The notes beneath the pieces are model-generated. The model made no database searches, had not been told where the DNA came from, and saw only the letters and a list, made by a program, of their open reading frames with translations. The position numbers were made by a program, and so were the translations under genes. Positions 4,569-45,722 of a stretch of DNA of 64,000 nucleotides are shown here, piece after piece. Positions within the stretch are counted from its first letter, which is position 1. Every line of letters begins with the position of its first letter. The DNA is from Blastocatellia bacterium (GTDB lineage: Bacteria > Acidobacteriota > Blastocatellia > UBA7656): assembly GCA_963765495.1 (NCBI GenBank), contig CAVXWP010000007.1, positions 128,001 through 192,000 on the forward strand, in the 5' to 3' direction.

Positions 4569-4570
4569 CT

Positions 4571-20007: not shown

Positions 20008-20466
20008 TCAATCTTCCGGCTTCTGATTGCGGACGATCTCGACCGAGCAGTTTGCCTGCGAGGCCACAGCCTGCGACACCGAGCCGAGCAGCAACCGCGT
20101 GAGACCGCGATAGCCGTGCGAGCCCAGGACAATCAGATCAGCGCCCCAGCGGTCCGCCTCTTCCACGATGGCGTGTTTGGGATAGCCGTGAATGATCTCG
20201 GCTGTGACGACAGGCGCGGTCGTCGCGGATGAGCTGATACGCGAGGCCGCGACTTCAAGAGCCTTGCGAGCCTGTTCTTCACCGGCCTTTATTAGCTCGT
20301 TGTAATAATTTTCTGGCAGGGTCCACGTCTCCGAAGTAGGCATAACAGGCGGCTCGACCACAGAAATAATTCTGATTTCGCTTCCATCGGGCCACGGCCT
20401 GCGGCTCACGGATTCGACCGCCGCGTCGCTGAAGGGGGAACCGTCTACGGCTAATAGAATTTTCAT
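20008..20466 (-). CDS. Universal stress protein
   Basis: MKILLAVDGS, ADLIVLGSHG..LLGSVS..CSVEIVR; GGAGG RBS before 20466. Confidence 0.92.
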   Translation of the reverse strand: MKILLAVDGSPFSDAAVESVSRRPWPDGSEIRIISVVEPPVMPTSETWTLPENYYNELIKAGEEQARKALEVAASRISSSATTAPVVTAEIIHGYPKHAIVEEADRWGADLIVLGSHGYRGLTRLLLGSVSQAVASQANCSVEIVRNQKPED

Positions 20467-20655
20467 CTCAAACCTCCGAGACAATTCTATCACTTCAAAC
20501 TCGAAGTCAGTCCAGAGGTAAAGCAATCATGCTACGGTGACGTTAACGGTCTGCACTTTTAGAATATGTTTCGTATCCAGTTGCATTGTGGCGTAATGGT
20601 TTGCTTATTCGTTAGAATGAAGCTGCCGATCAACGAATTGAAAGGAGCCGAACCG

Positions 20656-20839
20656 ATGGAAACTGTGAGCGTCGAACTACCGTTGCAACTGGCTGATGAA
20701 CTGCACCGGCTGGTTTCAAAATGAACAGGAAGCCATCCGTCTGGCTTTGAGCGAGTTTGTGCGCCGCAATCAATTCACGCTGATCGAACGTTTTCAGCGT
20801 GAAGACATCGCCTGGGCACTCTCTCAAAAGATTACGTGA
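20656..20839 (+). pseudogene. Frameshifted CopG/ribbon-helix-helix antitoxin-like gene
   Basis: AAAGGAG RBS; METVSVELPLQLADELHRLV continues in another frame as GWFQNEQEAIRLALSEFVRRNQFTLIERFQREDIAWALSQKIT*; not in the ORF track. Confidence 0.6.
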
Positions 20840-20857
20840 CTCTAATCAGCCATCAAT

Positions 20858-23698
20858 CTATTCGTGTCGCAATGCATCAAGCGGATCAACTCTTGATGCG
20901 CGGCGAGCGGGTATCCAGCAGGCCGCGAGCGCCACAAGCAACAACACTCCCGCTATCGCTCCGAATAGCAGTGGGTCGGCCCCCTTTACTCCATAAAGCT
21001 GTTCGGCCATCTCGTGCTGCCACGTCTCGGGGCCGTAATACTGGGTCGCCATCAGTCGCTTTACCGCGTACGCAGCAAGCCCGCCTGCCGCAAGGCCAAG
21101 CAATACGAGTTTCATTCCCTGCCAGATCACAAGTCGCAGGACGTTCCCCGGCTGCGCGCCAAGCGCCATCCGTATGCCTATCTCGTTTGTGCGTTGCGCT
21201 ACCGAATATGCAAGCACGCCCGATAGACCTATGGCCGCAAGCAAGAGCGCCAGTATCCCGAAAAAGCTGAGTAACTGCGCATAAAGCCTCTCCTGACTCA
21301 AGGATGCTTCGGAGCGGGCTGTCTGCGATGAGACTTCCGTTATCGGCAGATTGCCGTCGAGTTCCTGCACCGTCTGGCGCACGGCCTCCGTGAGCGCGGT
21401 TGGCTCTCCCTCGGTCCGCAGCGCAAAATACATGCCTCCGATGTTGTCTACTTCCTGTTGCCACGGCGTGTAAAGCAACGGCTCCATATCTTCGCGCTGG
21501 CTGTTGTATTTGCTGTCGGCCACTATGCCTACGATTTCGAGATCGTTTTTTGCCCGGTTTAACTTTACACGTTTGCCGAGCGCTCCTTCATCGGGAAAGA
21601 ACTGGCGCGCAAAGGTTTCATTGACGATGGCGACCTTCGGAGCATTCCGGTCATCCTGCGGAGTGAAATCGCGCCCGGCATGCAACGGAATCTGCAAGGT
21701 CGAAAAGTAGTTTTCGCGCACCATCTGACGGTTGGCTATATGGTCACTGGCTGTTTGTTCCGTTTCACCCGGCAGCAATAGGCCCGTGTTCCAGGTGTAG
21801 TGGGAGATCAGAGGAACTATGCCGAATGTGGCCGAGCGCACGCCGGGCGTGGTATCGAGCCGCGCAAACAATTGTTTATAGAAGTCGATCAGCCGGTCAT
21901 CTTTATATCCGCCCTTTTCCGGCTGCAATGCAAACGTCAGCAGGTTTTCCTGATTGAAACCGAGATCAATCTTTTGCAGGTTGCTCAAAGTGCGGATGAA
22001 TAACCCCGCGCCGATCAAAAGCATCAGAGACAGCCCGACCTGCGCCACGATCAAGCCTTTGCTCAAGCGCGATACGCCGCCCGTCGTGCGGCGGCTGCCT
22101 TTGAGCGAGCTTGCCAGATCGGTCTTTGTAGCGCGCAGGGCCGGAACCAGACCAAACAGAAGGCCGGTCAGAAGCGAAACGCCCAGAGTAAATCCAAGCA
22201 CCCGCCAGCTTAGATTCGGCTCGATGCCGTCGGGCAAAAAGTCTGTGTTCCGCCCGCCAAGCGACGCCAGCACGTTCTTGCCCCACAATGCCACCAGAAC
22301 TCCCGCCGCCCCGCCAATCGCCGCAAGCAACAGGCTCTCCGTCAACAGTTGTCGAATCAGTCGCCATCGTCCCGCTCCAACGGCCAGGCGTATGCTGATC
22401 TCCGGCCCTCTTAGTGCCGCTCGCGCAAGCAAGAGATTGGCTACGTTGGCGCACGCGATCAGCAACACAAGCACCACCACGGCGAACAGACCGTATATCG
22501 TTTTCGCATAGATTTTGCGAATCTCCAACAACCCGCGTCCGCCCGATATCGCCATCAGTTGAGGATATTGCGCGGGGTCTATCTGCGCCGCTTCGCTCTC
22601 TTTGCGCGGGGGCGGCATTATCTCAAGCGCGGTGGCCTGGAAAGCGCCGCCAAGACTGTCGCGCGCCTGTTCAAATGTAGCCCCGGGTTTCAATCGCCCC
22701 ATCAGATGAACCCACCAGTAGCCCGGCTTGTCTGCCTGCGCCATTGCGGAACTCTCACCCAGCAGCACAGGCTCAAATGCGAGCGGCACCGTGACCTCAG
22801 GGTGCGTGCTCACTTGCAGAGTGCCGCTGAAGCCGGGAGGCGTTACGCCGATAATGGTAAACGATGTCTTATTGAGCTTGATCTGCTGGCCGACTGCGTC
22901 GGGGTCGGAGTTGAATCTCTTCTGCCAGTAATCGTAATCGAGGACGACTACAGGCGTAGCCGCCGTATTGTCGTCCTCCGCTGTGATTGCGCGCCCGTAA
23001 ATCGGGTGTACGCCAAGCCCCGTGTAGTAGTCGCCCGAAACTCCCTGCCCGTGAACATTCTCCGCCTGTTCATTCATCACGGCGGTCAGTTCGTACAGCG
23101 GCGCAAAGGCGAAGAGGTCGCTCAACGGATCGTCGGCCAACTGCGCCCGCGCCTGCCGTAGTTTTTCGATTATGTCGTAACGAAAGACCGAGGCGTGCCG
23201 CCTGCCCGGCATATCATTGACAAAGGTGCCGCGGCTTCCGTTGGTCCTGAAATCGCGACCCGCCTGCCATTCAAACAGCACAAGCCGATCAGGTTCAGCC
23301 ACCGGCAGCATCCTGAGCAATACGGTATCAACCAGGCTAAACTGCGCGGTGTTTGCGCCTATGCCGAGCGCAAGCGAAAGCACAGCGACGATGGTGAAGC
23401 CTTTGTGTTTGAGCAGCATTCGCCAGCCATAACGCAGGTCTTGAAACATCTCGTCCTCCAATCTTTTCGGTTGTAAGAGTAATGCATCCAAAAACGCGCC
23501 CAGACTACGCCTGAGCAGATCGAGTTTCGCCCGCCAGTCGAGACGGTTCCACTCCGAAAGCAACAGTTCACGATAATACAACTCGGCTTCCCACTCGCGC
23601 CGCCAGTTTGCGCGAAGCCGGCGCGGCACGATCACGCCGATCAGACGGATCAGCCAGAGCCAGAATCGAAAGCGGGCAATGCGAGTCCGATCAGCCAT
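20858..23698 (-). CDS. ADOP-family duplicated ABC permease (array gene 9, distal)
   Basis: Conserved leader + [44 protein letters not shown]; two MacB-PCD/FtsX halves. Confidence 0.92.
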
Positions 23699-23771
23699 CA
23701 GATTTACTCGTGGCGAAGCGCGGTTAAGGGATCAACCCTCGTAGCCCGCCGCGCAGGTATCCAGCAGGCCA
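23648..23771. repeat. 124-bp junction direct repeat, copy 1 (partner 26317-26440)
   Basis: 123/124 identical; spans the 3' end of one permease, the 5-nt spacer and the 5' end of the next. Confidence 0.9.
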
Positions 23772-26367
23772 GAAGCGCAACGCCTGTCAGCAGGAAAGCA
23801 ACTCCCACAAACGTCAGCGGGTCAGTTGCGCTCACCCCAAACAGCAACGACTTCAGCCATCGCGTCAAAATCAGAGCGCCTGTCAAACCAAAACCCACAC
23901 CCGGCAGCGTCAGTTTCATCCCTTGCCCGATGATCAGGCGCAGTACATCTTGCGACTGTGCGCCCAACGCCATACGAATGCCGATCTCATGCTTGCGCTG
24001 CGTAACGGTGTAGGCGAGCACACCGTAAATCCCCAGGGCCGCCATCAAAAGCGCCACCCCCGCAAAGATCGCCATCAACAACAGCGTGAAGCGGCGTGGG
24101 GCGAGTGAGGCCGAGAGCAGTTGCCGCATCAGGGTGACTTCGTAAGCAGGCAGATCAGGATCAAGCGCGTGGATGGCCTGTCGAACAGCGCCCGTCAGAG
24201 CGCTTGGCTCGACCGAGGTGCGCACAACCAATTGCATATACGAATCCGTCAACTGCGCGTGCGGAACGTAAACCTGTAAATCGGGTGGCGTTTCCAGGCC
24301 ATAGTGGTTGACATCACCGACAATGCCTACGATAACGCGCGGCGGATCGTCAATTCCACCCAGCCTTATCTGCTTTCCAACGGGGTCTTCATCCGGCCAG
24401 ATGCGACGAGCCGCGGTCTGATTGATGAGGGCCACAAGCGTATTGTTTTCGTTATCCTGATCGGTAAAGCCACGACCACGTAAGACCGGAATCCCCATCG
24501 CACGCAGATAATCGGGGGTGATACCGTAACGTTCCGCGCTGGGCGCTTCGGCCGGATTTGCCAGCGGTTTTTCCTCGACGTGAAACCCGCTTGTGTCCAT
24601 ATTGCCGCCAAACGGCAGATTGCTGACAAGGCCAACTGCCTCGACGCCGGGCAGCGCTTCGATACGTTTGATGGCTTCGCTGTGAAAGGCGCGTTTCTGC
24701 GCCTCCTCACTGTACTTTGCGCCAAGGGCCGGCACCGGCATCGTCAACAGATTGCGCGCTTCGAACCCCGGCGTTACATCCAGCACGCGCGCGAAACTGC
24801 GGATGAGCAAACCCGCTCCGGCCAGCAGCACCAGCGCGAAGACAATTTCAGCCACCACAAACATCTCGCGCGCTCGGCGCTGTCCTTTGCCTGATGAGCC
24901 TCTGGCTTTTTCCTTCAAGGCAAGCTGGACATCCTGCCGCGCTGCCTGCCACGCCGGGGCCAGGCCAAAGAGCAAACCCGTCAGCAATGCCGACAGGAAC
25001 GTAAAGCCCAGCACGCGCGCATCAATCGTGACTGTCTGTACCTGCAACATCCTGGCGGGGCTGAGCCGCGTGAGCAGATCCGTCCCCCACAGCGCCAGCA
25101 ACAATCCAGCGCCCGCCCCGAGCGATGACAGCAGCAGACTCTCAATCAGCAATTGCCGCATAATGCGCAACGCGGGAGCGCCCAGCGCCGCGCGAATCGC
25201 CATCTCCATTCGTCGCTCATTTGCGCGTGCCAGCAACAGGCTGCCGATGTTTGCGCACGCGATCAGCAAGACTCCTCCCACCGCCGCCAGCAGCAGGTAC
25301 AGGGCCGAACGGATGGCGTTTACAAACTGATCCTGAAGGCGCGCAATGCTGACGGCAGATGTTGCATAGATTTTCGGATGCTCGGTCTGCATCACGCTCA
25401 TAATCGCGCTCATCTCGTTTCTGGCCTGCTCCATCGAAACATCGGATTTGAGACGGGCGATAGTCTTAAGGTGCTGGCAATCGCGACAGGCAAACGGCTG
25501 CGTCACGTCATATCCAAGCGGTACCCAGATGTCGGCTGTCTTGTAAAAATTCGCGGCGAGCAGATCGGTAAACCCTGATGGCATGACGCCTATAATCGTG
25601 TATGGTTGATCGCTCAGGCTGAGTTGTTTGCCTAAAACGTTCGGATCAGAGTTGAAACGCCGCTGCCAGAGCGAATGGCTGATGATAACGACAAAGCGCG
25701 TCGCCGGGCGGTCTTCGGCAGCCGCGAAATCACGGCCCAGTTCCGGGCTGACGCCCAGCAGATTGAAGTAGTCGGCAGACACGCGCAATCCCTGAATCAT
25801 CTCTGATTCACCCTGCCCGGTCATCACCCCTCCCCAATACCGGATCGCCACCATCGACTCGAACGAGTGGCTGCGCTCGCGCCAGTCTGCCAGAGTGGCA
25901 TATCCGGTGTTGCCCAGCACCCCTCCACTTTCGTCCGTCGATAGCATTACCAGCCGATCAGCATCCTGATACGGCAGCGGGCGTAGCAACACGGCGTTGA
26001 CTACGCTGAAGATCGCCGTGCTCGCGCCGATCCCAAGCGCGAGAGTGAAGACCGCAACAAGAGTGAAACCGGGATTCTTCCATAACATCCGCACGCCGAA
26101 ACGCAGATCTTGAAACATCTCATCCTCCCATCTGTAGGATTGCAACCAGAGCGCATCCCAGAATGCGCCGAGTGAGCGCCTGAGCAGATCGAGCCGTGCC
26201 CGCCACCCGAGACGGTCCCACTCCGAAAGCAACAGTTCGCGATAGCGCAACTCGGCCTGCCACTCCTCGCGCCAGTCTCGGCGAAGCCTTCCGGGGACGA
26301 TCACGCCTATGAGCGCGATCAGCCAGAGCCAGAAACGAAAGCGGGCAATGCGAGTCCGATCAGCCAT
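23704..26367 (-). CDS. ADOP-family duplicated ABC permease (array gene 8)
   Basis: Same motif set; leader [29 protein letters not shown]. Confidence 0.92.
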
Positions 26368-26440
26368 CAGATTTACTCGTGGCGAAGCGCGGTTAAGGGA
26401 TCAACCCTCGTAGCCCGCCGCGCAGGTATCCAGCAGGCCA
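26317..26440. repeat. 124-bp junction direct repeat, copy 2
   Basis: See 23648-23771. Confidence 0.9.
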
Positions 26441-29084
26441 CAAACGCGACGGCGATAAGCAAAATCGCTACACCCGCGAATGTGACGGGATCGGTTGCGC
26501 CTACGCCTAAGAGCAGACTCGCCAGTACGCGGGTTACGGCGAAAGCTCCAACGAGGCCGATCACAATACCGGCAATCACGAGCGTCATTCCCTGGCGGAG
26601 AATAATCCGCAGCACATCGCGGATTTGCGCGCCTAATGCCATGCGGATGCCGATCTCGCGTGTTCGCTGGCTGACCGTGTAGGTCATCACGCTGTAAAGT
26701 CCCATCGTTGCCAGTAGCAACGCAAGCAGGCCAAAGGTCGTAGCCATCCCGGCGGCCAGTCGCGGACCCCAGTAGGCATACGATAAATTCTGCTCAGCCG
26801 TCTGCACGCCAAAGACCGGCACACGCGAATCTATCTGCCCTATTTCGCGCCGAACGCTTTCGGCTATGGCTTTTAAATCGCCCGCAGAATTCGCGCCGAC
26901 AAGCAAGGTCATCTCCGACTGGTATTGCTGATATTCGGGCAGGTACATGTACATCTGCGGATCTTCGTATAGATTGCGGTACAGACCATCTTTGGCGATT
27001 CCGATAATCTCATTCAGCGGCTCCTTATTGCTCCAGAATCGAATGCGTTTTCCAAGTGCCGCCTGCTCGCTGCCGTAAAACCGGCGCGCAAATTCTTGAT
27101 TGACGATCACGACACGGGGCGTGTCAATCGTGTCGCGTTCGGTGAAATCGCGTCCCGACACGAGAGGCGTTTTTACAGTTTTAAAATATCCGGGCGCAAC
27201 CCAGTTGCAGGGAACAGTTACTCCCTGATTTGGCGGAGGGTCGGGCTCGCCTTCCTTTATCACCGGGCCTTTGCTGGAGTTGTTGTCACTGAGCGGCAAA
27301 TAAGCCGCAAGCGAAGCCGCGCGCACGCCGGGCTGCGCCTCTACGCGCCTCAGAGTTTCGGTATAAAACCGCTTTCCATCGGCGTCGTCATAGCCAAGCA
27401 ATCCCGGGTCAAGCCTCATCGTCACAAGCCTGTCGGCGCTGAATCCCAGATCGGTCTTCAGAACCTTATCCAGGCTTCTCAGAAACAACCCCGCGCATAC
27501 CAGCACTATGATCGAAATAGCCACCTGCGCGACTACGAGCGAGCCGCGCAGATTCCATCGCCGCCCCGTCCTGCCCGAAGACTGTCCGGCTATGCCGCCT
27601 TTGATCACAGCAACCAGATCGGTACGCGACGCAAGCCACGCCGGAGCCAGCCCAAAGATCAAGCCCGTCATCAGCGTAATAATGATCATCCATTTCAGCA
27701 CCGCAAGATCGGGACTGACGCCGAGATCAACAGGATAGGGAATCGGTGGAACCGAAGCATTAATCAGACTCGCCCCACCATAAGCAAAACACCATCCGAG
27801 CGCGCCGCCAAGGCTCGCGAGCAGAACGCTTTCGGTCAGCAGTTGTCGTATGATGCGAAACCGTCCCGCGCCAATCGCCAGACGGATGCCGATCTCTTTA
27901 GCGCGAGTAGCGGCTCGCGCAAGCATAAGATTCGCTACATTCGCGCAGGCCACGATCAGCACGAGACCGGAAACGCACAGCGCCAGCAATGCGCTGAATT
28001 TGAATGCGCCTACAGTATCCCCAAACCGCCCATCCGGTTCAGAAACGATTCGAACTTTCGTATCCGCGTTATTTTCCGGGTAAAGCCGGGCCAGATTTTC
28101 CGCGATCAGATTCAAATCCGCCTCGGCCTGCTCCATAGTGACGCCGGGTTTGAGCCGCCCTATCACGTTTAGGTTTGTCCACCCTCGGTTGGTTTCCCAT
28201 TCCGCGCCCATTTTGAATTTTGAGCGCATCATCAAAGGCGTCCAGAAGGACTGCTGTAATGGGAATTTCACGCCCTTAAATGCTTCGGGCGCTACGCCGA
28301 TTATCGTAAATGGAAACCCGTTCATGTAAATCGTTTTGCCCACAACCGAAGCATCGGCATTGAAACGACGCTGCCAGAGCGAATGGCTTATCACTACCAC
28401 CGGATGCGCATCCTGCGTGCGGTCTTCTTCGGGCAGAAAACCGCGACCCAGGATAGGTTTGACGCCGAGTACATCGAAGTAATTGCCGCTGACTATTTCG
28501 CCCCAGCCGATTTCCGCCCGTTCATTGTCGCCGGTACTGTGATTCTCGCCCGAACTGATCCCCGCCGAGGTCATACTCCACGCAAGTAAACCGGAAAGGC
28601 TCTTGTTCTGATCGCGCAGGTCAATATAGTTAGGGTAAGAAAAGTCGCCCCAGACCTCGCTGTCTGTCTTGCCGCCCCAGAACCCCACAACCAGTTCGTC
28701 CGGCTTTTCAACCGGCAGCGGACGAATAAGGAAACTGTTGACTGTACTCAATATCGCCGTATTCACGCCAATGCCGAGCGCAAGCGTGAGCACCGCCACA
28801 GCCGTGAACGCCTTGTCCTTTACCAGCATCCGCAGGCCGAAACGCAGGTCTTGAAACATCTCATCCTCCCATCTGTAGGATTGCAACCAGAGCGCATCCC
28901 AGAACGCGCCGAGACTGAGTCGCCTGAGCAGATCGAGCCGTGCCCGCCAGCCGAGACGGTCCCACTCCGAAAGCAACAGTTCGCGATAACGCAACTCGGC
29001 CTGCCACTCTTCGCGCCAGTCCGCGCGTACCCGGCGCGGCACGATCAGACCAATAAAGTTTATGAACCAGAGATGAGGCTTCAC
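26373..29084 (-). CDS. ADOP-family duplicated ABC permease (array gene 7)
   Basis: Same motif set; leader has an extra residue (RRLSLGAF). Confidence 0.92.
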   Translation of the reverse strand: MKPHLWFINFIGLIVPRRVRADWREEWQAELRYRELLLSEWDRLGWRARLDLLRRLSLGAFWDALWLQSYRWEDEMFQDLRFGLRMLVKDKAFTAVAVLTLALGIGVNTAILSTVNSFLIRPLPVEKPDELVVGFWGGKTDSEVWGDFSYPNYIDLRDQNKSLSGLLAWSMTSAGISSGENHSTGDNERAEIGWGEIVSGNYFDVLGVKPILGRGFLPEEDRTQDAHPVVVISHSLWQRRFNADASVVGKTIYMNGFPFTIIGVAPEAFKGVKFPLQQSFWTPLMMRSKFKMGAEWETNRGWTNLNVIGRLKPGVTMEQAEADLNLIAENLARLYPENNADTKVRIVSEPDGRFGDTVGAFKFSALLALCVSGLVLIVACANVANLMLARAATRAKEIGIRLAIGAGRFRIIRQLLTESVLLASLGGALGWCFAYGGASLINASVPPIPYPVDLGVSPDLAVLKWMIIITLMTGLIFGLAPAWLASRTDLVAVIKGGIAGQSSGRTGRRWNLRGSLVVAQVAISIIVLVCAGLFLRSLDKVLKTDLGFSADRLVTMRLDPGLLGYDDADGKRFYTETLRRVEAQPGVRAASLAAYLPLSDNNSSKGPVIKEGEPDPPPNQGVTVPCNWVAPGYFKTVKTPLVSGRDFTERDTIDTPRVVIVNQEFARRFYGSEQAALGKRIRFWSNKEPLNEIIGIAKDGLYRNLYEDPQMYMYLPEYQQYQSEMTLLVGANSAGDLKAIAESVRREIGQIDSRVPVFGVQTAEQNLSYAYWGPRLAAGMATTFGLLALLLATMGLYSVMTYTVSQRTREIGIRMALGAQIRDVLRIILRQGMTLVIAGIVIGLVGAFAVTRVLASLLLGVGATDPVTFAGVAILLIAVAFVACWIPARRATRVDPLTALRHE

Positions 29085-29097
29085 ATAATGCCTTTCA

Positions 29098-31746
29098 TCA
29101 TTCGTGTCGAAGCGCCCTCATCGGGTCCACCTTCGTAGCGCGCTGCGCGGGTATCCAGCAGGCCATCAATGCGACGAATATCAACAGTGACGCGATCAGA
29201 ACGAATGTCATCGGATCGGTCGCGCTCACGTTGAACAACAAGCTCTTTATCAATCGCGTCAGGGCAAGCGATGCGGCAAGACCGATGCCTACGCCGATAA
29301 TTGCCAGTGTCATTCCCTGTTTCACAACCAGCTTCAACACATCGCTCGTTTGCGCCCCCAGCGCCATCCGAATTCCGATTTCGTGTGTGCGTTGATTAAC
29401 CGAGTAAGAGATGACCGCATAGATTCCCGTCGCCGCAAGTATCAACGCAAGCCCCGCCAGAATCGCTATCAAAAGCGCGGGATAGCGTCGCAGAAAGGCT
29501 GAAGGCGTATCGCTTATCAGTTGCTCCATCGTCGCTGCCGAATAGAGCGCGAGGTCCGGGTCTATCGCCTGCACTTCACCGCGCACCGCGCTCACAATGT
29601 TCTGGGGGTCGCCTGCGGTTCGCACCACCAGATTGAGCTTTGTCCAGGGCTCTTGCAGGAAGGGGCGATAGATCACCGAGTCGGGCTCTTCATCGAGCGC
29701 GCCGACCCTCTCGTCATCTACCACGCCGATAATCTCAAGCGGCCTCGGCTCGTCGCCCGCGAAGTTGATGCGGTGCCCTATCGGGTCCTGATCTGCGAAG
29801 AGCCGATTGGCGAGCGCGGCGTTGATGATGATCGCATCGGGCGAGGCCGGATTGTCCTGTTCCGTAAACTCGCGTCCGCGCAGGAGGGCGATCCCCATCG
29901 TGCGAAAGTAAGTCGAACTGACCGTGCGCGTGCTTGCCTTTGGCTCTGTACCCGGAGCCGGTGGTGGTTGCCCTTCGACAAGCAGCAGATCGCCGGGGCC
30001 GGGCTGCATGGGCAGCCAGTTGACGGTAGCGGCCCCGACTACGCCGGGCAAATTTTCGATGCGCGAAAGCATTTGCTGATGAAATGCGCGCGTCTGATCG
30101 TCTTCGGAGTATCTGCCCGGGGGCAACTCCAATTGCAGGGTCAGCAACTGCTCGGGCTGAAACCCTAGCTTGACTTCCAACAATCGCAACGTGCTCTTTA
30201 TCATCAAACCCGCTCCGACAAGCAGCACAAGCGCCAGAGCGATTTCCGAGATCATAAGCAGCCCGCGAAATCCATAACGGCCCGCAGCCGTATTTGCGCG
30301 GCTGCCGTCCTTGAGCGAGGATTGCAGATCGAGCTTTGATGCCTGCCAGGCCGGAGCTAGCCCGAAAACTATCCCCGTCAAAGCCGACAATGCGCCCGTA
30401 AAGGCGAAGACCCGCCCGCTGAGCGTAAGCCCTCGGAGGTAAGGCATCGTATCGAGTTGCGCAGCCGGAATGGCCGCGATCAGAAACTTGATTCCCCAGA
30501 CGGCAATCGCGAGCCCGACGACTCCTCCCAGAAGCGTCAGCAGCAGGCTTTCGCTGATGAGTTGCCGCACAAGTCGCCAGCGGGTTGCGCCGAGGGCTAA
30601 TCTTACTGCGATCTCTTTGCGCCGCGCCGCAGCGCGAACGAGAAGGAGATTTGCGACGTTGGCGCAGGCTATGGCAAGCACGAATCCTACTGCTCCAAAC
30701 AGGACAAGCAGAAGCGGGCGAACAGAGCCTATGATCTGATCGTGCAGGGGGACTATCCTGATGCCCGCGCCCGTGTGCGAATCGGGGTTGTCGTGCTCGA
30801 TGCGAGAAGCAATCGCGCTCATCTGCGTCTGAGCCTGTTCGATGCTTACGCCGGGCTTCAGCCTGACTATAACATCCAGCCAGTGCATGAAGCGCCGCGT
30901 TACCTGCCCCTCGCTCGGGCGCAAGGGAACCCAGAGTTCAGCCTTTCCCATCGGCGCGAATTGGAAACTCCGGGGCAGCACTCCGAGCACCGTGTAGGCG
31001 TCTCCATCGAGCATCAGCCGCTGCCCTATGATGTTCGGGTCAGCGCCGAAACGTCTTTGCCAGAGCCCGTAGCTCAAAATGACATTTGCCGCTGCGCCGG
31101 GTTTGTCTTCATCAGGCAGAAACGAGCGGCCCAAAACGGGGTCTACGCCGAGCACGGAAAAGAAACCTGCGGTGATGCGCGCGCCCTCGATGCGTTCGGG
31201 TTCGGCCCTGCCTGTGAGGGTGAACGAGCCGCCCCAGCCCGTGTAACCGCATATGCCTTCGATGACATCGGTCTGGCTGCCCCAGTCCAGATAATCGGGA
31301 TAGGAGGCGTCTACCTGTTTGATTTCATAACCGGGGCGAGTCTCCCAGATTTGAACCAGCCGGTCAGGATTTCTGTATGGCAACGCGCGTAAAAGCGCCG
31401 CATCGACTACCGTAAATATCGCGGTGTTAGCGCCGATGCCCAATCCGAGCATGAGCATGGCAACGGCGGTAAAGCCCGGCTTTTTCAAAAGCATTCGCAC
31501 GCCGAAACGTATGTCTTGAATCATTTCGTCCTCCCAACGGTAGGATTGGAGCCAGAGCGCATCCCAGAATGCGCCGAGACTGCGTCGCCATAAATCCAGT
31601 CTGTTTTTCCAGTCGAGTCTGTCCCAGTCCGCCAGGAGCAACTCGCGGTATTGCAACTCGGCTTCCCACTCATCGCGCCAGTCCGCGCGCAGACGGCGAG
31701 GGACAATCAAACCGATAAATTGAATCAGCCTCAGATGCGTCTTCAC
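29098..31746 (-). CDS. ADOP-family duplicated ABC permease (array gene 6)
   Basis: Same motif set; leader [12 protein letters not shown]. Confidence 0.92.
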
Positions 31747-31773
31747 ATTTACCTTTAATCACTCGTGCTTTAA

Positions 31774-34531: not shown

Positions 34532-34545
34532 CAATTTCCACGGCC

Positions 34546-37221: not shown

Positions 37222-37226
37222 CGGGT

Positions 37227-39881
37227 TTACTCGTGCCGTAAGGCAGTCAGCGGGTCAACCTTCGTAGCTCGCCAGGCCGGCACGAAACAGGCCAGCAGCG
37301 CCACTATCATCAGAAGCAGGGTAATAACTCCGAAAGTCGCCGGATCGGTCGTGCTCACGCCATACAGCATTTTTACCATCAGCCTGGTCAGCACCAGCGC
37401 GGCTGCCAATCCGAGCGCCACCCCGCTCAACGCCATCTTCAATCCGTGACCCAGGACCAGACGCAGCACGTCCGCGCGCTGTGCGCCAAGCGCCAGGCGG
37501 ATGCCCAGTTCGTGTGTGCGCTGGCCGATGAGGTATGAGATGACGCCGTAAAGACCCAGGCTCGCAAGCAGCAGCGCCACTACGGCGAAGGCATCGAGGA
37601 GGATCATCGAGAAGCGCCGCGCCGCAAGCGAGTCGGCGATTACCTCATCCATCGTTTGAGGTCTGAAGATGACATTCTGGCTGTTCTGACTTTGCACGAC
37701 TCCGCGGATCGAGTCAAAAAGCGAGGGAGGCACGGCTCCTGCTTCTCCGGCTAACCCTTCGGTACGCATTATTACGTCCACGCCCGAAGGGCTGCCCGAT
37801 AATTGTCTGAACGGTTCGTAGAGTTGAGCCTGAAGCGATGTCTGATCATCCGAATCGAGACCCCACTGTTTCACGTGCCCGACCACCCCGACGATCTGCG
37901 CCTGATCGCCCTCCAGATTTATTCGCTTGCCGATGGGGTCTGTGTCAGGGAAGTATTTGAGGGCAAAAGCCTCGTCAATCACCACGACATTCGGAGATCG
38001 TTCATCATCCTGTTCGGTGAAGAAACGGCCCTGCTTGAGCGGGATGTCCATCGCCGTCAGATAGGCAGGTTCGACCCTGTATACAAGCGCCATGTTCATC
38101 TCGCTGTTGCTCGCAGGTTTCGGCTGGCCTTCGATCCAGAAGAACAGGTCATCCTCGCTCTGCATGGGAGATGCGCCCACTGAAAATGAGGCGGCCCGGA
38201 CACCCGGCATGGAGTTGAGCCTGTCGCTCAGTTCGCGCAGGTTGGCGCGAGCCGCTTCCGGGGTTGCCGTCTTCATTGACGGCGGAAAGCCGAGTCCAAA
38301 CGTCAACACCTCATCCGAGCGAAATCCCGGATCGACATCCCAGAGCGCGCTCAGGCTGCGGATCATCAAGCCCGCGCCGATAAGCAAAACGACCGCCAGC
38401 CCCATCTCAACCGCGACCAGGACGGCCTGCGCCCGCCCGCGCCCGCCGCTTACGCCGCGCCCGCCCTCCTTTAGCGTTTCCGATAACCGCCACTGCGAAG
38501 TCTTCAGCGCCGGAACCATCCCCGCCACTATCCCTGTGAGCAGCGAAACGGCCAGCGTGAAAAGCAGTACGCGTCCGTCCAGCCCAACCTCTTCCGAGCG
38601 GGGCAACGCTGTGGGCAGCACGCCAAGCGCGGCGCGTGTTCCCCATCCAGCAAGCAACACCCCGAGCCCCCCGCCTGCAAGCGACAGCAGTATGCTTTCG
38701 GTGAGCAGTTGACGGAGCAAGCGCCACTGCCCGGCGCCAAGGGCGGCGCGGATGGCGAATTCGCGTCTCCTGCCGGTCGAGCGCGCAAGCAGCAGATTGC
38801 TGACGTTTACGCAGGCAATCAGCAGCACAAACCCGACCGCGCCAAATAACATCCACAGGGTAGGCCCGATGTCGCCAACCATCCTTTCCTTGAGCGGTAT
38901 GAGCTTCGCGCCGTTGCCCTTGTTGGCATCAGGATAAGTGGCGGCGAGATTCTCCATCACTCTATCCATGTCGGCCTGCGCCTGCGCGACACTGATGCCG
39001 GGTTTGATTCGGCCAATGCCGTGCAGCCCCAAGGCGGCGCTGCGGTTTTGCAGGGCGGGGGTATTCCACTGGCCAATCGGCACATAGACATCGGTGCCGC
39101 GATACAGATTGAAGCTTGCGGGGAGCACGCCTATGATCGTGTAGCTCTTGTCATCAAGGGTCAGGCTTTTTCCAAGCACATCCGGCGCGGCATCGAATTT
39201 GCGCTGCCAGAGGGCCGTGCTGATCATCACCACGGGGCTTGCGCCGCGCTCATCTTCGCCCGGCTCAAAGGCGCGCCCCAGCGCGGGCTCGACACCGAGA
39301 ACAGAGAAAAAATCCGCCGAGATCATCCTTCCATCCAGGCGCTCGGCTTCGCCCGTGCCGATCAGACTGAAACCGTACCCGCGCGAGATGGCCATAGCGG
39401 AGAAGGTCTGGTTCTCTTTTTGCCAGTCACGAAAATTCGGATAGGGGATTGCGCCGGTTTCGAAATTCGGTTTGCTCTGATGCAGCGTCACGATCTGCTC
39501 GGGCTGCGGGTAGGGCAGCGGATTGAGCAGCACGCCGTTGACTACGGAAAAGAGCGCCGCGTTAGCCCCAATGCCGAGCGCAAGCGTTATCACTATCATC
39601 CCGGTGAAGCCGGGGTTCTTGAGCAGCATCCGCACGCCGTAACGTATGTCCTGAATCATCTCGTCCTCCCAACGATAAGTTTGCAACCAGAGCGCATCCC
39701 AGAACGCGCCAAGTGAGCGCCTGAGCAGATCAAGCCGTGCACGCCAGCCGAGGCGGTCCCACTCCGCAAGCAACATTTCGCGGTAACGGAGTTCGGCTTT
39801 CCATTCCTCGCGCCAATTGGCGCGGAGCCGCCTCGGGACAATCAAACCGATAAATCGAATCAGCGACAGATGCGGTTTCAC
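37227..39881 (-). CDS. ADOP-family duplicated ABC permease (array gene 3)
   Basis: Same motif set; leader nt 39652-39775 identical to 36965-37088. Confidence 0.92.
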   Translation of the reverse strand: MKPHLSLIRFIGLIVPRRLRANWREEWKAELRYREMLLAEWDRLGWRARLDLLRRSLGAFWDALWLQTYRWEDEMIQDIRYGVRMLLKNPGFTGMIVITLALGIGANAALFSVVNGVLLNPLPYPQPEQIVTLHQSKPNFETGAIPYPNFRDWQKENQTFSAMAISRGYGFSLIGTGEAERLDGRMISADFFSVLGVEPALGRAFEPGEDERGASPVVMISTALWQRKFDAAPDVLGKSLTLDDKSYTIIGVLPASFNLYRGTDVYVPIGQWNTPALQNRSAALGLHGIGRIKPGISVAQAQADMDRVMENLAATYPDANKGNGAKLIPLKERMVGDIGPTLWMLFGAVGFVLLIACVNVSNLLLARSTGRRREFAIRAALGAGQWRLLRQLLTESILLSLAGGGLGVLLAGWGTRAALGVLPTALPRSEEVGLDGRVLLFTLAVSLLTGIVAGMVPALKTSQWRLSETLKEGGRGVSGGRGRAQAVLVAVEMGLAVVLLIGAGLMIRSLSALWDVDPGFRSDEVLTFGLGFPPSMKTATPEAARANLRELSDRLNSMPGVRAASFSVGASPMQSEDDLFFWIEGQPKPASNSEMNMALVYRVEPAYLTAMDIPLKQGRFFTEQDDERSPNVVVIDEAFALKYFPDTDPIGKRINLEGDQAQIVGVVGHVKQWGLDSDDQTSLQAQLYEPFRQLSGSPSGVDVIMRTEGLAGEAGAVPPSLFDSIRGVVQSQNSQNVIFRPQTMDEVIADSLAARRFSMILLDAFAVVALLLASLGLYGVISYLIGQRTHELGIRLALGAQRADVLRLVLGHGLKMALSGVALGLAAALVLTRLMVKMLYGVSTTDPATFGVITLLLMIVALLACFVPAWRATKVDPLTALRHE

Positions 39882-39893
39882 AATCGCCCCCGG

Positions 39894-42575
39894 TCATTCC
39901 TGCCTTAGCGCCGTCAACGGGTCGACCTTTGTCGCTCTGCGCGCGGGCAGATAACAGGCAAACAAGGCGACGCTCAACAACAGGAGCGCAACGCCTGCAA
40001 ACGTCAGCGGATCGGTTGCGCTCACATCATAAAGCAGCCCGATTAACAGGCGTGTCACCGCCCACGCAGAGAGCAATCCGATGCCTACGCCGACGAGTGT
40101 GAGTTTTATGCCTTGCCGCAAAATCAGATTGAGCACATCGCTTGTTTGCGCGCCCAATGCCAGCCGCACCCCGATCTCTTGCGTGCGCTCGGTGACGTTG
40201 CCGGAGAGTACGCCATAGATGCCGATGGTTGCGAGCGCGAGCGCCACGAGTCCGAACATCTCGAACAGTATCATCGCAAAATGTCGCTCGGCGGCTGATG
40301 CCGCGAGCAGGTCATCCATCGTGACGATCCGCGCAATTGACTGATCTTTGTCAACAGACCAGATCGCCTTTTTGATGGCGGGGGCAAGCGCCGCCGCATC
40401 ACCGCTCGTGCGGACCACAAGCGACATCGCCCTGTCGGCGAAGGGCCACTGATCGGTCGGGACATACACGGCATCCGACTGGCTCACCGCGAGCGATGCC
40501 TGCTTTACGTCGCCGACCACGCCCACGATTGTGTATAACGGTCCGTCTATCGGTCCGATGCGCAGACGCTGACCAATCGGGTCAACTCCGGGGAACTTGC
40601 GATTTGCGAAAGACTCGCTGATCTGCGCGACGAGCAGAGCATTCGCGCGGTCGTGTTCGTCGAGCAGACGGCCCTGACGGAGAGGGATTCCTGTCGTTTC
40701 GAAATAGCCCGGGCTTACCGCGTATCGAAACGCGCTGTGATCTTCTTCGGGGCTTTCATTCGGGCTTGATTCGAAGTGCACGCCGTATTGATCCAGATCG
40801 CCGCTCAAGGGCAACTGGCTGGTGAAGGCCGCCCGAGTGACACCGGGAATCTGACGCACCGCCTCCAGGGTCTGGCTGAAGAACCGATGAGTGGCTGCGT
40901 TGTCAAAGCGGTGCCCCGATGTCTGCACCTGCATTGTGAGCAGGTGTGAAGCGTCGAACCCCGGATCAACCGCAAAGAGTCGCTGCATACTACGCAACAG
41001 CAATCCCGCGCTCACAAGCAGCACAAAGGCGAGCGCCACCTCCGCGACGACGAGCGTTCCGCGCGTCAGCCTGTGACCGCCGGTCACGCGCCTCGAACTT
41101 TGCTGTATCCCCGTGTGGAGGTCAGCCCGAGATACGTGTAGGGCCGGAATCAGCCCCGTCAAAAGCCCGATCAGCGTGGTGAGGCCCAATCCGAAGGCGA
41201 ATACATTTCCATTGATGACTATCGCATTTACCCGGGGAAGACCGGGTGGGCTGAGCGCCACCAGTGCTCCTACACCGAACTGCGCCACCAGCATCCCGAG
41301 AGCGCCGCCGAGTATGGCAAGCAGCAGACTCTCGGTGAGGAGTTGCCGGATTATCCGAGTACGCCCGGCACCAAGCGCGGCGCGAACCGTAAATTCGCCG
41401 CGCCGCTGTGTGCCGCGAGCCAGCAACAGATTCGTCACGTTTACGCAGGCTATCGTGAGCACCAGCAGTACCGCGCCGAGGACGGCAACGAGCGCAGGCC
41501 TTACGCCGCGTGTGATTTCGTCCTTGAGCGAATTCACTATGAGCCCATCTTTGAGTGCCGCCCAGGGCGCTCTGGGAAAATCGGGCACAGGGGAGTGGGC
41601 GATGGAGTCAATCTCTAATCCGGCCTGGTCTGTTGTGATGCCCGGGCGCAATCGGCCTACTATGTGAAGGTGATGCCCCCACGCCTGCGGGAGCGACATG
41701 TCATATTGCATCGGCGTCCACAGTTCCGCCGCAGGAGACAGGACATTTTCGAAGGCAACCGGCATCACTCCGATGACCGTATAGCTGTTGTCGTCGAGCG
41801 TGATCTGCCGCCCGATAATCGTGTGATCACCGCCGAAGCGCCGTTGCCAGAGCCCGTTGCCGAGGATGGCTACTCTGGGGCCGCCCAGCCGATCATCGGA
41901 TGAATCGAAGTCCCGTCCAATCATCGGCGGCACTCCCAATACCTGAAAATAACTCGCGCTCACGCGCTGCCCATCCAGGCGCTCGGGCTCGGTTTGCCCG
42001 GTCATGGTCGGTTGCCAGGGTTTTACTACCGCGATTGCGTCGAAGGCGCTACTCCGTTCCGCCAGTTCGCGATAGGTGCCGAAGGTGCCGTCAAGGTGCG
42101 AGCCTTCGGGGCCGTGGTCCCAGATCATCTGTATACGGTCGGCTGAAGGATAGGGCAAGGGCTCGAATAGAACGGGTTTCACCGCACTGAAGATCGCGGT
42201 GCTTGCGCCAATCCCAAGCGCAAGCGTTAAGACGGCAATTAGAGTGAACGCGGGGTTTTTCCAAAGCATTCGAATACCAAAACGCAGGTCCTGAATCATC
42301 TCGTCCTCCCAACGGTAAGTTTGCAGCCAGAGCGCATCCCAAAACGCGCCTATGCTTCGCCTGAGCAGATCGAGTTTCGCAAGCCATCCGAGACGGTCCC
42401 ACTCTGAAAGCATCGCTTCGCGGTAACGGAGTTCGGCCTGCCACTCTGCGCGCCAGTCTCGGCGAAGACGGCGGGGCACGATCACGCCTATGAATGCGAT
42501 CAACCAGAGATGAAGCTTTAAGGGGACTCTTTTGCCGTTTTGCATTCCGCACTCTGCCTTCCGCGCTCGAATCAC
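39894..42575 (-). CDS. ADOP-family duplicated ABC permease (array gene 2)
   Basis: Same motif set; GTG start overlaps the upstream stop; N-terminal [12 protein letters not shown] encoded by degenerate heptamer repeats. Confidence 0.9.
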
Positions 42576-45241
42576 TCGTGCCTCAAGGCCACCAGTGGAT
42601 CAACCCGCATCGCGCGGCGCGCGGGCAGATAGCAGGCCAGCAACGCTGTGCCCGTCAGCAAAAGCGTAATGGCTGCGAAGGTAATCGGGTCGCTTGCGCT
42701 GACACCAAACAACAGCCCTTTCAGCATCCGCGTCACAACCAGTGACGCCGCCAACCCGCCGGCCACGCCTATCAAGACCAGCCGCATGCCGTAACCGAGG
42801 ACCAGCTTGAGAACATCTCCTGTCTGCGCGCCAAGCGCCAGGCGAATGCCGAGTTCGTGCGTGCGCTCTGTGACTGACCAGGCGAGCACGCCGTAAATGC
42901 CCGTTGTGGCCAGCAACAGCGCAAGCCCCGCAAACATCCCGGTCAACCACACCGACAACCGGCGGCGGGCAAGCACCGCCGAAAGCGCCTCTTCCATCGT
43001 CCGCATCTGGTGGATGGGTTGCTCGCTGTCGGTTGCAAATACCGCCTGCCGCACGGCGGCGGCAAGCCCCGCCGGATCGCCTGCGCTGCGAATCATCAAC
43101 ATCTGCTGGTTGCTGAATCCGGGTGCATAAATTTCCGGCTCGACCTGAGTGTCAAGACCGAGGTCTTTGACATCAGCGACGACGCCGATAACGGGAACCG
43201 CGATCGGGTTAGGGAACATCACGCCCATCAGGATATTTTTGCCGACCGGGTCTTCGTTCGGGAAATAGCGGCGGGCCATGGTCTCGTTGATGATAAAGAA
43301 GTTGCGGTTGTTGGCGATGTCGTCGGTCGTGAATACGCGCCCGCCTTTCACGGCTATCCCCATCACCTGGAAATAGTCCTGACTGACGTTACGAATTTGC
43401 GCGACCGGGAAATGGCCCGGCGCAGAAGGCGGCGCGCCTTCCACCGCGAACCGCGTTTTGGCATTGAAGGGAGTCAGCGGAAAATAGTCAATCGTGGCTA
43501 CCCCTTGCACGCCGGGCAGCGCCGCTATGCGCGGTAACAGGTCCCGGTCGAAATTGTTTACCTGCTGAAACTGCTGATATTTCACGGCGGGCAGTGTCAG
43601 TTGCGCGGTCAGTAGATGTTCGGCGCGAAACCCCGGCTCCACCTGTAAGAGGTTTTGAAAGCTCCTGAGCAACAGGCCCGCGCCGACAAGCGCAACCATC
43701 GTGAATGCGACCTCTGCAATCACCAGAAGACGGCTGGTCCGCTGGCGGCCTTTCCCGGCGGAAGATTTCCCGCCATCTTTGAGCGTTTGATTGAGATTGA
43801 GCCGCGAGAGTTGAAAGGCCGGGATCAGCCCAAACAACACGCCGGTCAGCATTGTCACAAACAGAGTGAAGCCCAGCAGTCTCAGATCAAGCCCGACCTC
43901 GTTTAGCGCCGGAAGCTGTTCGCTTGCCATGTGCGGCAGGATGACGCGCAACAACGGCAGGCTCCAGACGGCCAGCAACAGCCCGCCCAGCCCGCCCAGC
44001 AAAGCCAGCATCAGGCTTTCCGTCAGGAACTGCCGGAACAAACGCCCGCGCCCTGCGCCCAGTGCCGCGCGCATTGCCACCTCCCTTTGCCGGTGCGCCG
44101 CGCGTGCCAACAGCAGGTTGGAAACATTTACGCAGGTGATGAGCAGCACGAGCCCAACAGTGCCAAATAGCGCCAGCAGAGCGGGTTTTAACTCGCCGGT
44201 CATTTGCTCGTGCAAAGAGGTGAGCGTGACGCCGATAGTCTTGTTGGTATCCGGGTAGGATTGTTGGAGCCGTCCGGCGATGGATTCCAACTCCGCTCGC
44301 GCCTGGTCGAGTGTGACGCCGGGTTTGAGCCGTCCAACCACTTCAAGCGGATGGCGCACCCGATTTGTCAAATAATCGGTCCCCAGTTGCGAGAGCGGCA
44401 ACCAGACATTCGCATCAAACGGGAACTGCGCGCCCTGCGGCAGTACGCCGACTACGATGTGTGGTTCGCCGTTCAGCCGTATAGTCTTTCCCACGATTCC
44501 CGGGTCTGCGGCAAAGCGGCGCTGCCACAGCCCGTAACTCACCAGCGCAACGCGATCACGTCCTGCCCGATTCTCCTCCGGCAGGAAATTGCGGCCCAGC
44601 GCCGGCTCGATACCGAGCAGCGGCAGGAGGTTTGGCGTGATACAGGTGCCCTGTAATTGCTCCGGCTCGCCGACATCGGTGAGCACATAATTGCCCAGAG
44701 CCTTGAATGAATAAGCCGCCAACCCTGAGAAACTCACTGCCTGTTGTTGCCAATCCTCGAAATCGGGCGTCGCCACCTGGAGCCGTGGCACTTCCGGGTG
44801 CGTCTCGGTTATCGCCACCAGCCGCCCGGGTTCGGCAAACGGCAGCGGACGTAACAGGACGGCATTGATAACGCTGAAGATGGCCGTATTTGCGCCTATG
44901 CCGAGCGCGAGCGTGATGATTGCTATCAATGTGAAACCGGGCGTCTTGAGTAACATTCGCACGCCGTAACGTATGTCTTGAATCATCTCGTCCTCCCAAC
45001 GATAAGTTTGCAACCAGAGCGCATCGCGGAGCGCGCCAAAGGAACGCCTGAGCAGATCGAGTTTCGTAAGCCACCCGAGACGATCCCACTCCGAAAGCAA
45101 CAGTTCGCGATAACGCAACTCGGCCTGCCATTCTTCGCGCCAGTCTCGGCGAACCCTGCCGGGCACGATCACGCCTATGAGCGCGATCAGCCAGTAGCAG
45201 GGATTGGAGCGCCTGGCTTTGAGGCGGTGGAAAAACGCCAT
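42572..45241 (-). CDS. ADOP-family duplicated ABC permease (array gene 1, promoter-proximal)
   Basis: Same motif set; start taken at ATG 45241, 4 nt after the PadR stop. Confidence 0.9.
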
Positions 45242-45245
45242 GGTT

Positions 45246-45572
45246 TCAGCCTTGCTCTTCAATAGTCTTTCCGACCTTTGCAGGCCCGGTCTGTTCAAGC
45301 ATCTTGTATCGCTTCGCCGCCTCTATCAGCGCATCCTCTCCGCTGCGGGTGAGTTGATAGTATTTTCGTGGGGGTCGCAATTCCTGCTGCGCGATTGTCG
45401 ACTTTTCCCATTTCGAGGTTACAAACCCCGCTTCCTCCAGACGACGCAGCGCCGGATAGATCGTGCCGCTCGGCAAACCCGTTATGTCCATTATGTCGAA
45501 ACCATACCGATAGCCGTTTGCCAGAGCCTGCAATATCACCGTAGCCGAAAATGATAAATATCCTTTCCCCAT
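45246..45572 (-). CDS. PadR-family transcriptional regulator
   Basis: [34 protein letters not shown]; GAGGAG RBS before ATG 45572. Confidence 0.92.
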
Positions 45573-45592
45573 ATGTCTCCTCACTAAATCGT

Positions 45593-45637
45593 ATGTCGTT
45601 TGCTATTTATATAGTTTGCTACATAGGTAAATGTCAA
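45593..45637 (-). promoter_or_regulatory. Sigma70-type promoter overlapped by two tandem PadR-like operators
   Basis: Minus strand TTGACA (45637-45632)-N18-TATATA; ATGT-AGCAAACT-ATAT (45624-45609) and AAAT-AGCAAACG-ACAT (45608-45593). Confidence 0.7.
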
Positions 45638-45722
45638 GCACTTTTTGGCCGGCTTGAGGCGAAAAATTTCCCGCGCGAATTTTGCCCGCACAGGAATGGA
45701 GAACTGAGTTAAGATTTCAATC

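Follow-up and report, generated by a model that had tools for sequence, protein, structure and literature searches.

Evidence for gene conversion confined to the leaders of nine ADOP permease genes in a PadR-headed array of a Blastocatellia bacterium

The stretch of DNA analysed here, 64,000 nucleotides of contig CAVXWP010000007.1 from a Blastocatellia bacterium (the window), carries on its minus strand, from 45572 down to 20858, one gene for a PadR-type repressor followed by nine open reading frames (ORFs) for permeases of the ADOP family, G1 to G9, which encode 882-946 aa, are all co-oriented and have each their own start codon. Comparison of these genes with one another and with relatives from other genomes indicates, as far as can be read from sequence, that short-tract gene conversion homogenises their leaders within a genome, while the remaining parts of the genes, the cores, evolve independently. 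The leader comprises the first ~85-90 residues before the first transmembrane helix (TM1) and lies outside the ADOP profile. New here is the concerted evolution of this prefix, in which the cores do not take part; the literature searched contained nothing on such evolution of the prefix or on its binding to PadR. We consider it highly probable that old cores together with concerted evolution restricted to the leader describe the history of the array, and regard as evenly balanced the whole account, in which the operon, the old cores and the converted leader are joined by PadR as the partner of the leader. The array belongs, as a large and typical member, to a family that is known but functionally unexplained and whose description we take to be that of orphan, PadR-linked permeases. 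The ADOPs rank with the most extensive groups of paralogues in soil Acidobacteria and, to our knowledge and in the parts of the literature consulted, have no known function, partner or energy source.

Histories of leader and core

Third-position identity among the nine genes was 0.64-0.70 in the leader and 0.29-0.43 elsewhere, conserved membrane helices included. At identical residues of the leader the same codon was used in 1214 of 1894 cases, with 763 expected from the per-amino-acid same-codon rates of the remainder of the genes, and the median synonymous divergence (dS) of 0.78 was far below the 1.53-2.23 found elsewhere in the genes, as the original prediction from the bare sequence had anticipated. 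The same prediction had described a constant C-terminal tail, which stands at the protein level but not at synonymous sites: there, tail identity was 0.46 against a background of 0.41-0.47 and thus without excess, save for a 105-nt junction repeat, so that the constancy of the tail is that of a family motif conserved in the protein sequence. Exact repeats of at least 20 nt between array genes lay within the first 330 nt of the genes in 46 of 51 cases, the remaining five being the 105-nt junction repeat (G7/G8, G8/G9) and four repeats of exactly 20 nt. The longest exact tract (124 nt) is shared by the leaders of G3 and G4. Overall, the leader repeats measure ~270 nt with 67-90% identity within the window, and their sharing is mosaic, with partners changing along the leader and tract ends that vary.

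In a nucleotide tree of 22 leaders, those of G1, G2, G3, G4, G7 and G8 formed one clade (support 98/97) which excludes the leaders of their own core orthologues. This clade was chosen after viewing the leader tree and was tested on separate columns, namely those of the cores in the same rows, which rejected it (delta log-likelihood 2418.6; approximately unbiased test, p-AU 1.3e-83). The leader and core trees are therefore incongruent, again as predicted. The leader of G6 falls outside the clade of window leaders, and that of G9 groups with leaders from outside the window, those of its own orthologues included. A similar picture was obtained across genomes. For 156 genes, the leader tree required 91 changes of genome label, compared with 128.8 +/- 2.4 (minimum 122) in shuffles and 132 in the core tree. 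In the leader, paralogues from one genome shared codons at a fraction of 0.60 (window genes, 0.63), and between genomes this fraction was 0.53 for paralogue-like and 0.55 for orthologue-like pairs; the corresponding fractions of the core were 0.54 for orthologues and 0.41-0.42 for paralogues. Leaders from different genomes are thus roughly as distant as the species, and those of one genome are closer, which is characteristic of gene conversion restricted to a single segment. Homologous recombination between leader repeats could plausibly also reorder, delete or duplicate genes over time.

That purifying selection, local codon preference or RNA-level constraint shaped the leader on their own, with no conversion at all, is in our estimation very improbable. 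Such an explanation would suit a leader which is ~75% identical between genomes too and which holds 16 of the 40 invariant columns of a 118-sequence alignment within its first 87 residues. It does not fit the excess of identical codons, which was found despite the per-amino-acid control, the clustering of leaders, but not of cores, by genome, or the exact tracts of 124 and 105 nt between genes with a core nucleotide identity of ~47%. An RNA structure conserved at synonymous sites was rejected, as the leader showed no excess of folding (z +0.30 and +0.83). Finally, the leader of G5 carries three frameshifting indels relative to G4 and substitutions at several residues invariant elsewhere, and its DNA nevertheless remains a close match to that of G4, while the 897-aa core ORF is intact. 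Some G5-type orthologues in other genomes are likewise without a leader call (e.g. L002, 4786-7293).

Domain-restricted concerted evolution in tandem bacterial paralogues is a general phenomenon. As in other cases, the affected segments of paralogues from one genome resemble each other more than those of orthologues from different genomes do, and tracts are mosaic; the window differs in that conversion is limited to a module of 85 codons, with the remainder of the genes saturated at synonymous sites. The locus is also a clean case in which conversion is limited to a single domain of otherwise saturated paralogues.

Age and order of the cores

The cores had been described as unrelated to their neighbours, which is contradicted by their match to a single family profile and by their alignment from end to end over the full length. 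All nine genes matched TIGR03434 (ADOP) over profile positions 2-803 of 803 with 907-1022 bits (curated cut-off 622.3 bits), and each contained two stretches of PF12704 (MacB_PCD) and two of PF02687 (FtsX). Identity among the nine in windows of 30 codons was 0.17-0.45 in the periplasmic domains and reached 0.66 in membrane segments. Each ADOP is predicted to consist of eight transmembrane helices and two periplasmic MacB-like domains. An AlphaFold2 (AF2) model of G8 from a 118-row alignment, with a predicted local distance difference test (pLDDT) score of 88.6 and a predicted template modelling (pTM) score of 0.82, showed two repeated halves, and its nearest folds were YbbP (9ge6_A, E 2.4e-18), MacB (5gko_A), LolCDE and BceAB; the top sequence match among solved chains was MacB 5lil_A (E 2.4e-41).

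For comparison with other genomes, species-representative genomes were searched with a leader profile, leading to at least 551 confirmed copies, from the best 80 matches of which 60 loci were kept, nearly all of them titled Blastocatellia or Acidobacteriota. The best leader identity between the window and these loci was 79%, and the locus sample therefore includes neither the genome of the window itself nor a close relative. The comparison set comprised 161 non-redundant ADOP genes of at least 780 aa from 38 assemblies, 149 of them with a leader. Core orthologues at 0.67-0.80 identity were detected in other Blastocatellia genomes for G1, G2, G3, G4, G5, G7 and G9, whereas core identity to any paralogue in the window did not exceed 0.47. 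The cross-genome core identities were 0.74 (best match of G1, with 0.47 for its best paralogue in the window), 0.70-0.72 (G2), 0.80 (G3), 0.75 (G4), 0.68-0.70 (G5), 0.62-0.67 (G7) and 0.70-0.71 (G9); for G6 and G8 no core orthologue of at least 0.55 identity was found among the 161 sampled genes. In a 22-row core tree, from which G5 was omitted because of its broken leader, the cores of G1, G2, G3, G4, G7 and G9 each paired with their orthologues with 100% support in the Shimodaira-Hasegawa-like approximate likelihood ratio test (SH-aLRT). As orthologues at 67-80% identity occur across genomes, the paralogues predate the divergence of these genomes. The cores are thus old and stable paralogues, not captured or hypervariable inserts, and their dissimilarity is explained, judging from these comparisons, by ordinary duplication followed by long divergence. 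The earlier argument that simple tandem duplication would have left similar cores does not fit these old duplicates.

Arrays of this build are common, even the rule, in these genomes, with 14, 12 and 8 full-length ADOP genes sampled per contig in the three largest cases. Core types are arranged differently in different genomes (G2-G9, G9-G2, G3-G9, G9-G3 and G9-G5-G2-G9 were all observed), and the first gene after PadR is of a different core type in different genomes. Array order is thus not identical among the sampled relatives, which the original prediction had foreseen; as these relatives are distant (orthologues ~70-80% identical), the differences say little on the rate of shuffling. With trees that are not congruent, dS values that are not equal and an order that is not identical, the contrast between leader and core is therefore real.

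From this contrast it had first been concluded that the array diversifies in the manner of cassettes: cores of unrelated or foreign origin would be captured, and active shuffling would place them between constant ends. The decoupled histories of leader and core are as expected for such a system, the same core types vary in their order and distance from PadR between genomes, and the ~270-nt leader repeats are similar enough (67-90%) that they could mediate unequal crossing-over. Against this stand the homology of the cores and the retention of seven of the nine as orthologues, and the Pfam scan of the window revealed no integrase, recombinase, transposase or reverse transcriptase. With only -4 to 27 nt between genes, recombination sites cannot be accommodated (attC sites take up more space than such gaps offer), all copies are full-length and co-oriented with none silent or partial, and conversion tracts end variably instead of at fixed sites. 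Moreover, changes in order are expected with time between genomes as distant as those compared. We therefore regard capture and active shuffling of cores as very improbable; the unusual history lies in the converted leader and not in the cores. The locus is not evidence for a new diversification machine, and no dedicated shuffling machinery was found in the window. Three specific systems were considered and rejected: an integron or another array of site-specific cassettes (the window ORFs include neither an integrase nor a recombinase domain, and the gaps are tiny), an expression site with silent cassettes of the pilE/pilS type (all nine are full-length ORFs with own starts) and a diversity-generating retroelement (no reverse transcriptase in the window, the repeats being the leaders themselves).

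Exact repeats of up to 124 nt could also confuse short-read assembly graphs; the array would then be an artefact, with ADOP genes from scattered places strung together by way of their leaders. This is scarcely credible, since tandem arrays of the same build occur on contigs of many of the 38 assemblies, one of them in a 9.5-Mb chromosome record with at least 14 full-length genes in one region, and since all junctions in the window are in-frame and tight.

Among the closest known systems are the canonical ADOP/PadR pairs (TIGR03434, TIGR03433 and NF038403). They share with the window the core family, the order of PadR followed by ADOP, a short N-terminal prefix before TM1 and the lack of an adjacent ATPase, and the canonical pairing (TIGR03433, NF038403) also occurs in related loci. 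The window differs by a PadR below the TIGR03433 cut-off, a prefix which is not NF038403 and long arrays behind a single PadR. Escherichia coli YbbP/YbbA and MacB, which are type VII ATP-binding cassette transporters, have a mechanotransmission-type fold and periplasmic domains in common with the window ADOPs; they possess a dedicated ATPase, fused or adjacent, whereas the window has none and a leader takes the N-terminal place. Likewise, of a tripartite pump of the MacAB-TolC type only the permease fold is present, with ATPase, fusion protein and TolC absent from the window. In Psychroflexus torquis, about ten ADOP paralogues whose periplasmic domains are MacB-like have been described in a cluster of 42 kb; the proteins are of unknown function and reported to be abundant (PMC3914696). 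This cluster is located on a genomic island with other transporters, some with ATP-binding regions, and the passage describing it mentions neither a leader domain nor a link to PadR or concerted evolution (PMC3914696).

Leader, PadR and their proposed contact

The leader is a separate cytoplasmic helical module which runs into TM1 and is the most conserved part of the protein. A near-constant leader had been claimed for every gene, which applies to eight of the nine (mean column identity 79% among these intact copies) and fails for the frameshifted G5. In the G8 model the leader forms helices 12-22, 30-48 and 55-97, the last of which continues into TM1 (99-128). Even with E values up to 10 allowed, neither Pfam nor NCBIfam contained a meaningful match to the leader (the results were Metal_resist, E 0.03, and ADOP, matched at its edge), NF038403 (permease prefix domain 1) was not matched at E up to 10 by the four window leaders tried, and matches in the ESM Atlas were confined to unnamed clusters of acidobacterial fragments (best score 0.91). 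Query positions 1-86 are not covered by any solved chain. When 1.84 billion representatives were searched with a profile, the leader was detected in 691 clusters with an E limit of 1e-3 and in 105 with a limit of 1e-30, and full-length proteins matching the profile were 875-924 aa long. In one metagenomic protein (P0062), NF038403 is followed in tandem by a leader of the window type, and both prefix types can thus be combined.

The PadR of the window is a divergent subtype which passes the cut-off of PF03551 (27 bits) and misses that of TIGR03433 (45.4 vs 101.8 bits). Its AF2 model (pLDDT 79.8) is a winged helix-turn-helix with helices 8-18, 24-31, 35-47 and 76-94 and wing strands 51-55 and 70-74. 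The related loci contain 28 orthologues (E 1e-38 to 1e-58), and all 28 are located directly upstream of a leader-bearing ADOP gene, one of these being a fragment at a contig end. The four weak matches to canonical-type PadRs are all upstream of leaderless ADOPs; the one of the four that was scored (L042) reached 146.6 bits with TIGR03433, and the two leaderless ADOPs scored (L042 and L020) reached 41.8 and 57 bits with NF038403. PadR subtype and prefix type go together, and those of the window lie outside the descriptions in current curated libraries.

The most likely reason for the homogenised leaders is that all of them must dock to one shared partner. We suggest, tentatively and at slightly less than even confidence, that the leader, an uncurated N-terminal domain behaving as a shared docking module, has the PadR of its own operon as this partner. 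Co-folding of two PadR chains (29-row alignment) with one leader (8-row alignment) led to a median interaction prediction score from aligned errors (ipSAE) of 0.62 (runs 0.67, 0.59 and 0.62), compared with 0.00 for the best of three controls. Among solved complexes 116 of 157 attain such a value, as do 2 of 215 mismatched pairs, counts that are only a rough guide here because of the custom alignments and the 2+1 chains instead of a single-chain pair. The runs agreed in at least 94% of contacts, with a partner pLDDT of at least 67. The predicted interface comprises leader residues 34-45 and 63-78 and PadR residues 23-25, 28, 34-37, 39-40, 43 and 65-70, and on the PadR side maps to helix 2, the start of the recognition helix 35-47 and the wing loop before strand 70-74. 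Recognition helix and wing are the DNA face of winged-helix proteins.

Within this interface, PadR residue 35 and leader residue 67 vary together. Of 41 genes downstream of a PadR with Ser35, 40 have Gly67 in the leader and one is unreadable at a contig end, to which the window adds eight of eight; of 34 genes downstream of a PadR with Gly35, 32 have Ser67 in the leader. This covariation was dropped as independent evidence, as the swap corresponds to a single change on the PadR tree. Both classes can be found in one assembly (loci L005 and L046), and L010 carries both PadR classes on one contig (PadR genes at 1613-1936 and 17921-18244); the leader downstream of its Ser35 PadR ends at the contig edge before residue 67, so that only the Gly35/Ser67 combination is readable there.

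Were the leader to bind in this way, its acidic helices (~residues 34-45 and 63-78) would cover the recognition helix and the wing of PadR, and a permease in the right state would keep PadR off its candidate operator, which contains the word CTATGTAG, leading to derepression of the operon. That the regulation works by sequestration, in this direction, is doubtful to us. Nine different periplasmic cores would then feed a single regulator, with a possible role in sensing. A still somewhat more doubtful extension takes the ADOPs as a multi-input transmembrane sensor array instead of transporters: each diverged core would read a different ligand or envelope state, MacB-type mechanotransmission in reverse would expose the constant acidic leader, and the leader would capture PadR by mimicking DNA on the recognition helix and wing. 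Gene conversion would keep the leaders matched to their cognate PadR, and insulated specificity classes (Ser35/Gly67 and Gly35/Ser67) would coexist in one genome. The Mlc repressor is held by PtsG, and BceAB signals to BceS; the logic proposed here is alike in that a membrane protein of transport type controls a regulator by contact, and differs in that other families are involved, the contact is a prediction only and a single regulator would serve nine permeases. Binding of the leader to the DNA-binding face of the adjacent PadR is a new testable prediction which, if true, would explain why PadR and ADOP genes travel together and would provide a further example of a PadR regulator under the control of a membrane protein.

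Several points weigh against the account with PadR as partner. The binding is a matter of model confidence, not of measurement, the leader reached a pLDDT of only 50-78 in the full-length G8 model, and its interface positions are not better conserved than the rest (0.78 vs 0.84). The co-occurrence of PadR subtype and leader type could be mere co-inheritance; similarly, the exchange between Ser35/Gly67 and Gly35/Ser67 amounts to a single event on the PadR tree and could stem from a common ancestry of the operons. As G5 has lost its leader and kept an intact core, the leader is not needed for retention of the gene. The operon status, in turn, rests on the small gaps and the lack of good matches to internal promoters or terminators. 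Lastly, the cytoplasmic loops TM2/TM3 (R385, E388, R392, G396) and TM6/TM7 (E794, R798, G802), invariant in 118 sequences, resemble the ATPase-coupling helix of MacB, which would favour an ATPase encoded elsewhere.

In this alternative, the leader docks another shared partner, most plausibly a MacB/LolD-type ATP-binding cassette (ABC) ATPase encoded elsewhere, and PadR is a transcriptional switch only; the ADOPs would be ordinary type VII ABC exporters with a trans-encoded motor. Besides the invariant loop motifs, it is favoured by fold and sequence, which are nearest to the ATPase-driven YbbP, MacB and LolCDE, and by the position of the leader, which occupies the place of the fused ATPase of MacB before TM1 (the alignment of MacB to the query starts only at about position 597 or 87). 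Concerted evolution would suit any shared partner. However, no ATPase is encoded in the window, ORFs with both Walker-A and LSGGQ motifs number only two across 833 kb of related loci and do not share the strand of the arrays, the PadR subtype tracks the leader type, and the co-fold of PadR and leader passes its controls. We consider a trans-encoded ATPase as the partner unlikely, although by no means negligible.

Operon layout, promoter and neighbourhood

The positions of all array features are compiled in Table 1. That nine permease genes on the same strand follow one PadR gene was borne out by the ORFs and the PF03551 match. G1 starts 4 nt after PadR, and the further intergenic distances are -4, 12, 5, 27, 13, 5 and 5 nt; these seven agree with the predicted range of -4 to 27 nt, whereas the ORFs of G4 and G5 are 78 nt apart, owing to the broken 5' end of G5. 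The 105-nt junction repeat at 23667-23771 is identical to 26336-26440, which covers the G7 tail, the spacer and the start of G8. PadR and G1 to G9 can be read as one PadR-headed operon. A consensus scan of 20400-40300 for internal promoters gave three sites (7.5 expected), none of them convincing, and terminator-like sites were at chance level (26 found, 21.7 expected).

Table 1. Positions of the PadR-ADOP array features in the window (leader positions and profile scores under details)
Feature	Position	Strand	Details
Putative promoter	45606..45640	-	TTGACA 45637-45632, 18-nt spacer, TATATA 45613-45608; read by eye
PadR repressor, 108 aa, divergent subtype	45246..45572	-	PF03551 51.8 bits; TIGR03433 45.4 bits, below cut-off
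G1 ADOP	42572..45241	-	Leader 44969-45241; TIGR03434 982 bits; start 4 nt past PadR stop
G2 ADOP	39894..42575	-	Leader 42282-42548; TIGR03434 927 bits
G3 ADOP	37227..39881	-	Leader 39642-39881; TIGR03434 957 bits
G4 ADOP	34546..37221	-	Leader 36955-37221; TIGR03434 964 bits
G5 ADOP, core ORF intact	31774..34545 (ORF 31774-34467)	-	Leader remnant 34261-34545; TIGR03434 935 bits
G6 ADOP	29098..31746	-	Leader 31507-31746; TIGR03434 1022 bits
G7 ADOP	26373..29084	-	Leader 28842-29084; TIGR03434 940 bits
G8 ADOP	23704..26367	-	Leader 26101-26367; TIGR03434 995 bits
G9 ADOP	20858..23698	-	Leader 23432-23698, most divergent of the nine; TIGR03434 907 bits
105-nt exact junction repeat	23667..23771	-	G8 tail, 5-nt spacer, first 32 nt of G9

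The single promoter expected upstream of PadR could be read at 45637-45608, though it is absent from the output of the consensus scan, which skipped it because its -10 hexamer lacks the required final T. Its spacer contains the operator-like word CTATGTAG at 45626-45619, and two copies of TAGCAAAC lie in and past the spacer. In 27 of 29 loci CTATGTAG was found at most 150 nt upstream of the start of the PadR orthologue, and wherever a -35 box can be seen it sits in the promoter spacer; in total, 34 occurrences were counted in 1.67 Mb of locus sequence with both strands included. The region around CTATGTAG is thus likely to be a PadR operator common to the Blastocatellia arrays. In the same 27 of 29 PadR upstream regions (loci L004-L060), CTATGTAG is followed by repeated TAG-containing half-sites between -35 and -10.

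The absence of an ABC ATPase, an HlyD-type fusion protein and TolC from the window, as originally stated, was confirmed by a Pfam scan of the 31 other window ORFs of at least 90 aa and, for the ATPase, by a motif scan in which no in-frame pair of Walker-A and LSGGQ was detected anywhere in the 64 kb. The array is flanked by two genes for class I/II aminotransferases, 18757-19995 (+) and 45723-46871 (+), which are 32% identical and therefore do not reflect a recent flanking duplication. Upstream of the array, past the aminotransferase gene 45723-46871 (+) and on the array strand, a gene at 46951-49941 (-) encodes an outer-membrane beta-barrel of 996 aa with a CarboxypepD_reg domain, which resembles TonB-dependent receptors and not TolC. 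Further genes in the window code for an extracytoplasmic function (ECF) sigma factor, followed by a protein of 772 aa in which a zf-HC2 anti-sigma motif is combined with a FecR domain and Kelch repeats (3987-6784, +), for a KaiC-like ATPase domain fused to HisKA and HATPase_c histidine-kinase domains (13438-15237, -) and for a Ser/Thr protein kinase of 899 aa with C-terminal ankyrin repeats (51242-53941, +).

Among the related loci, eight (L027, L035, L038, L042, L051, L052, L053 and L058) come from records titled 'uncultured Clostridia' or 'Heliomicrobium' and carry PadR-ADOP arrays of the Blastocatellia type. At the protein level these arrays are 70-83% identical to the window, and the titles probably misstate the lineage of these array contigs.

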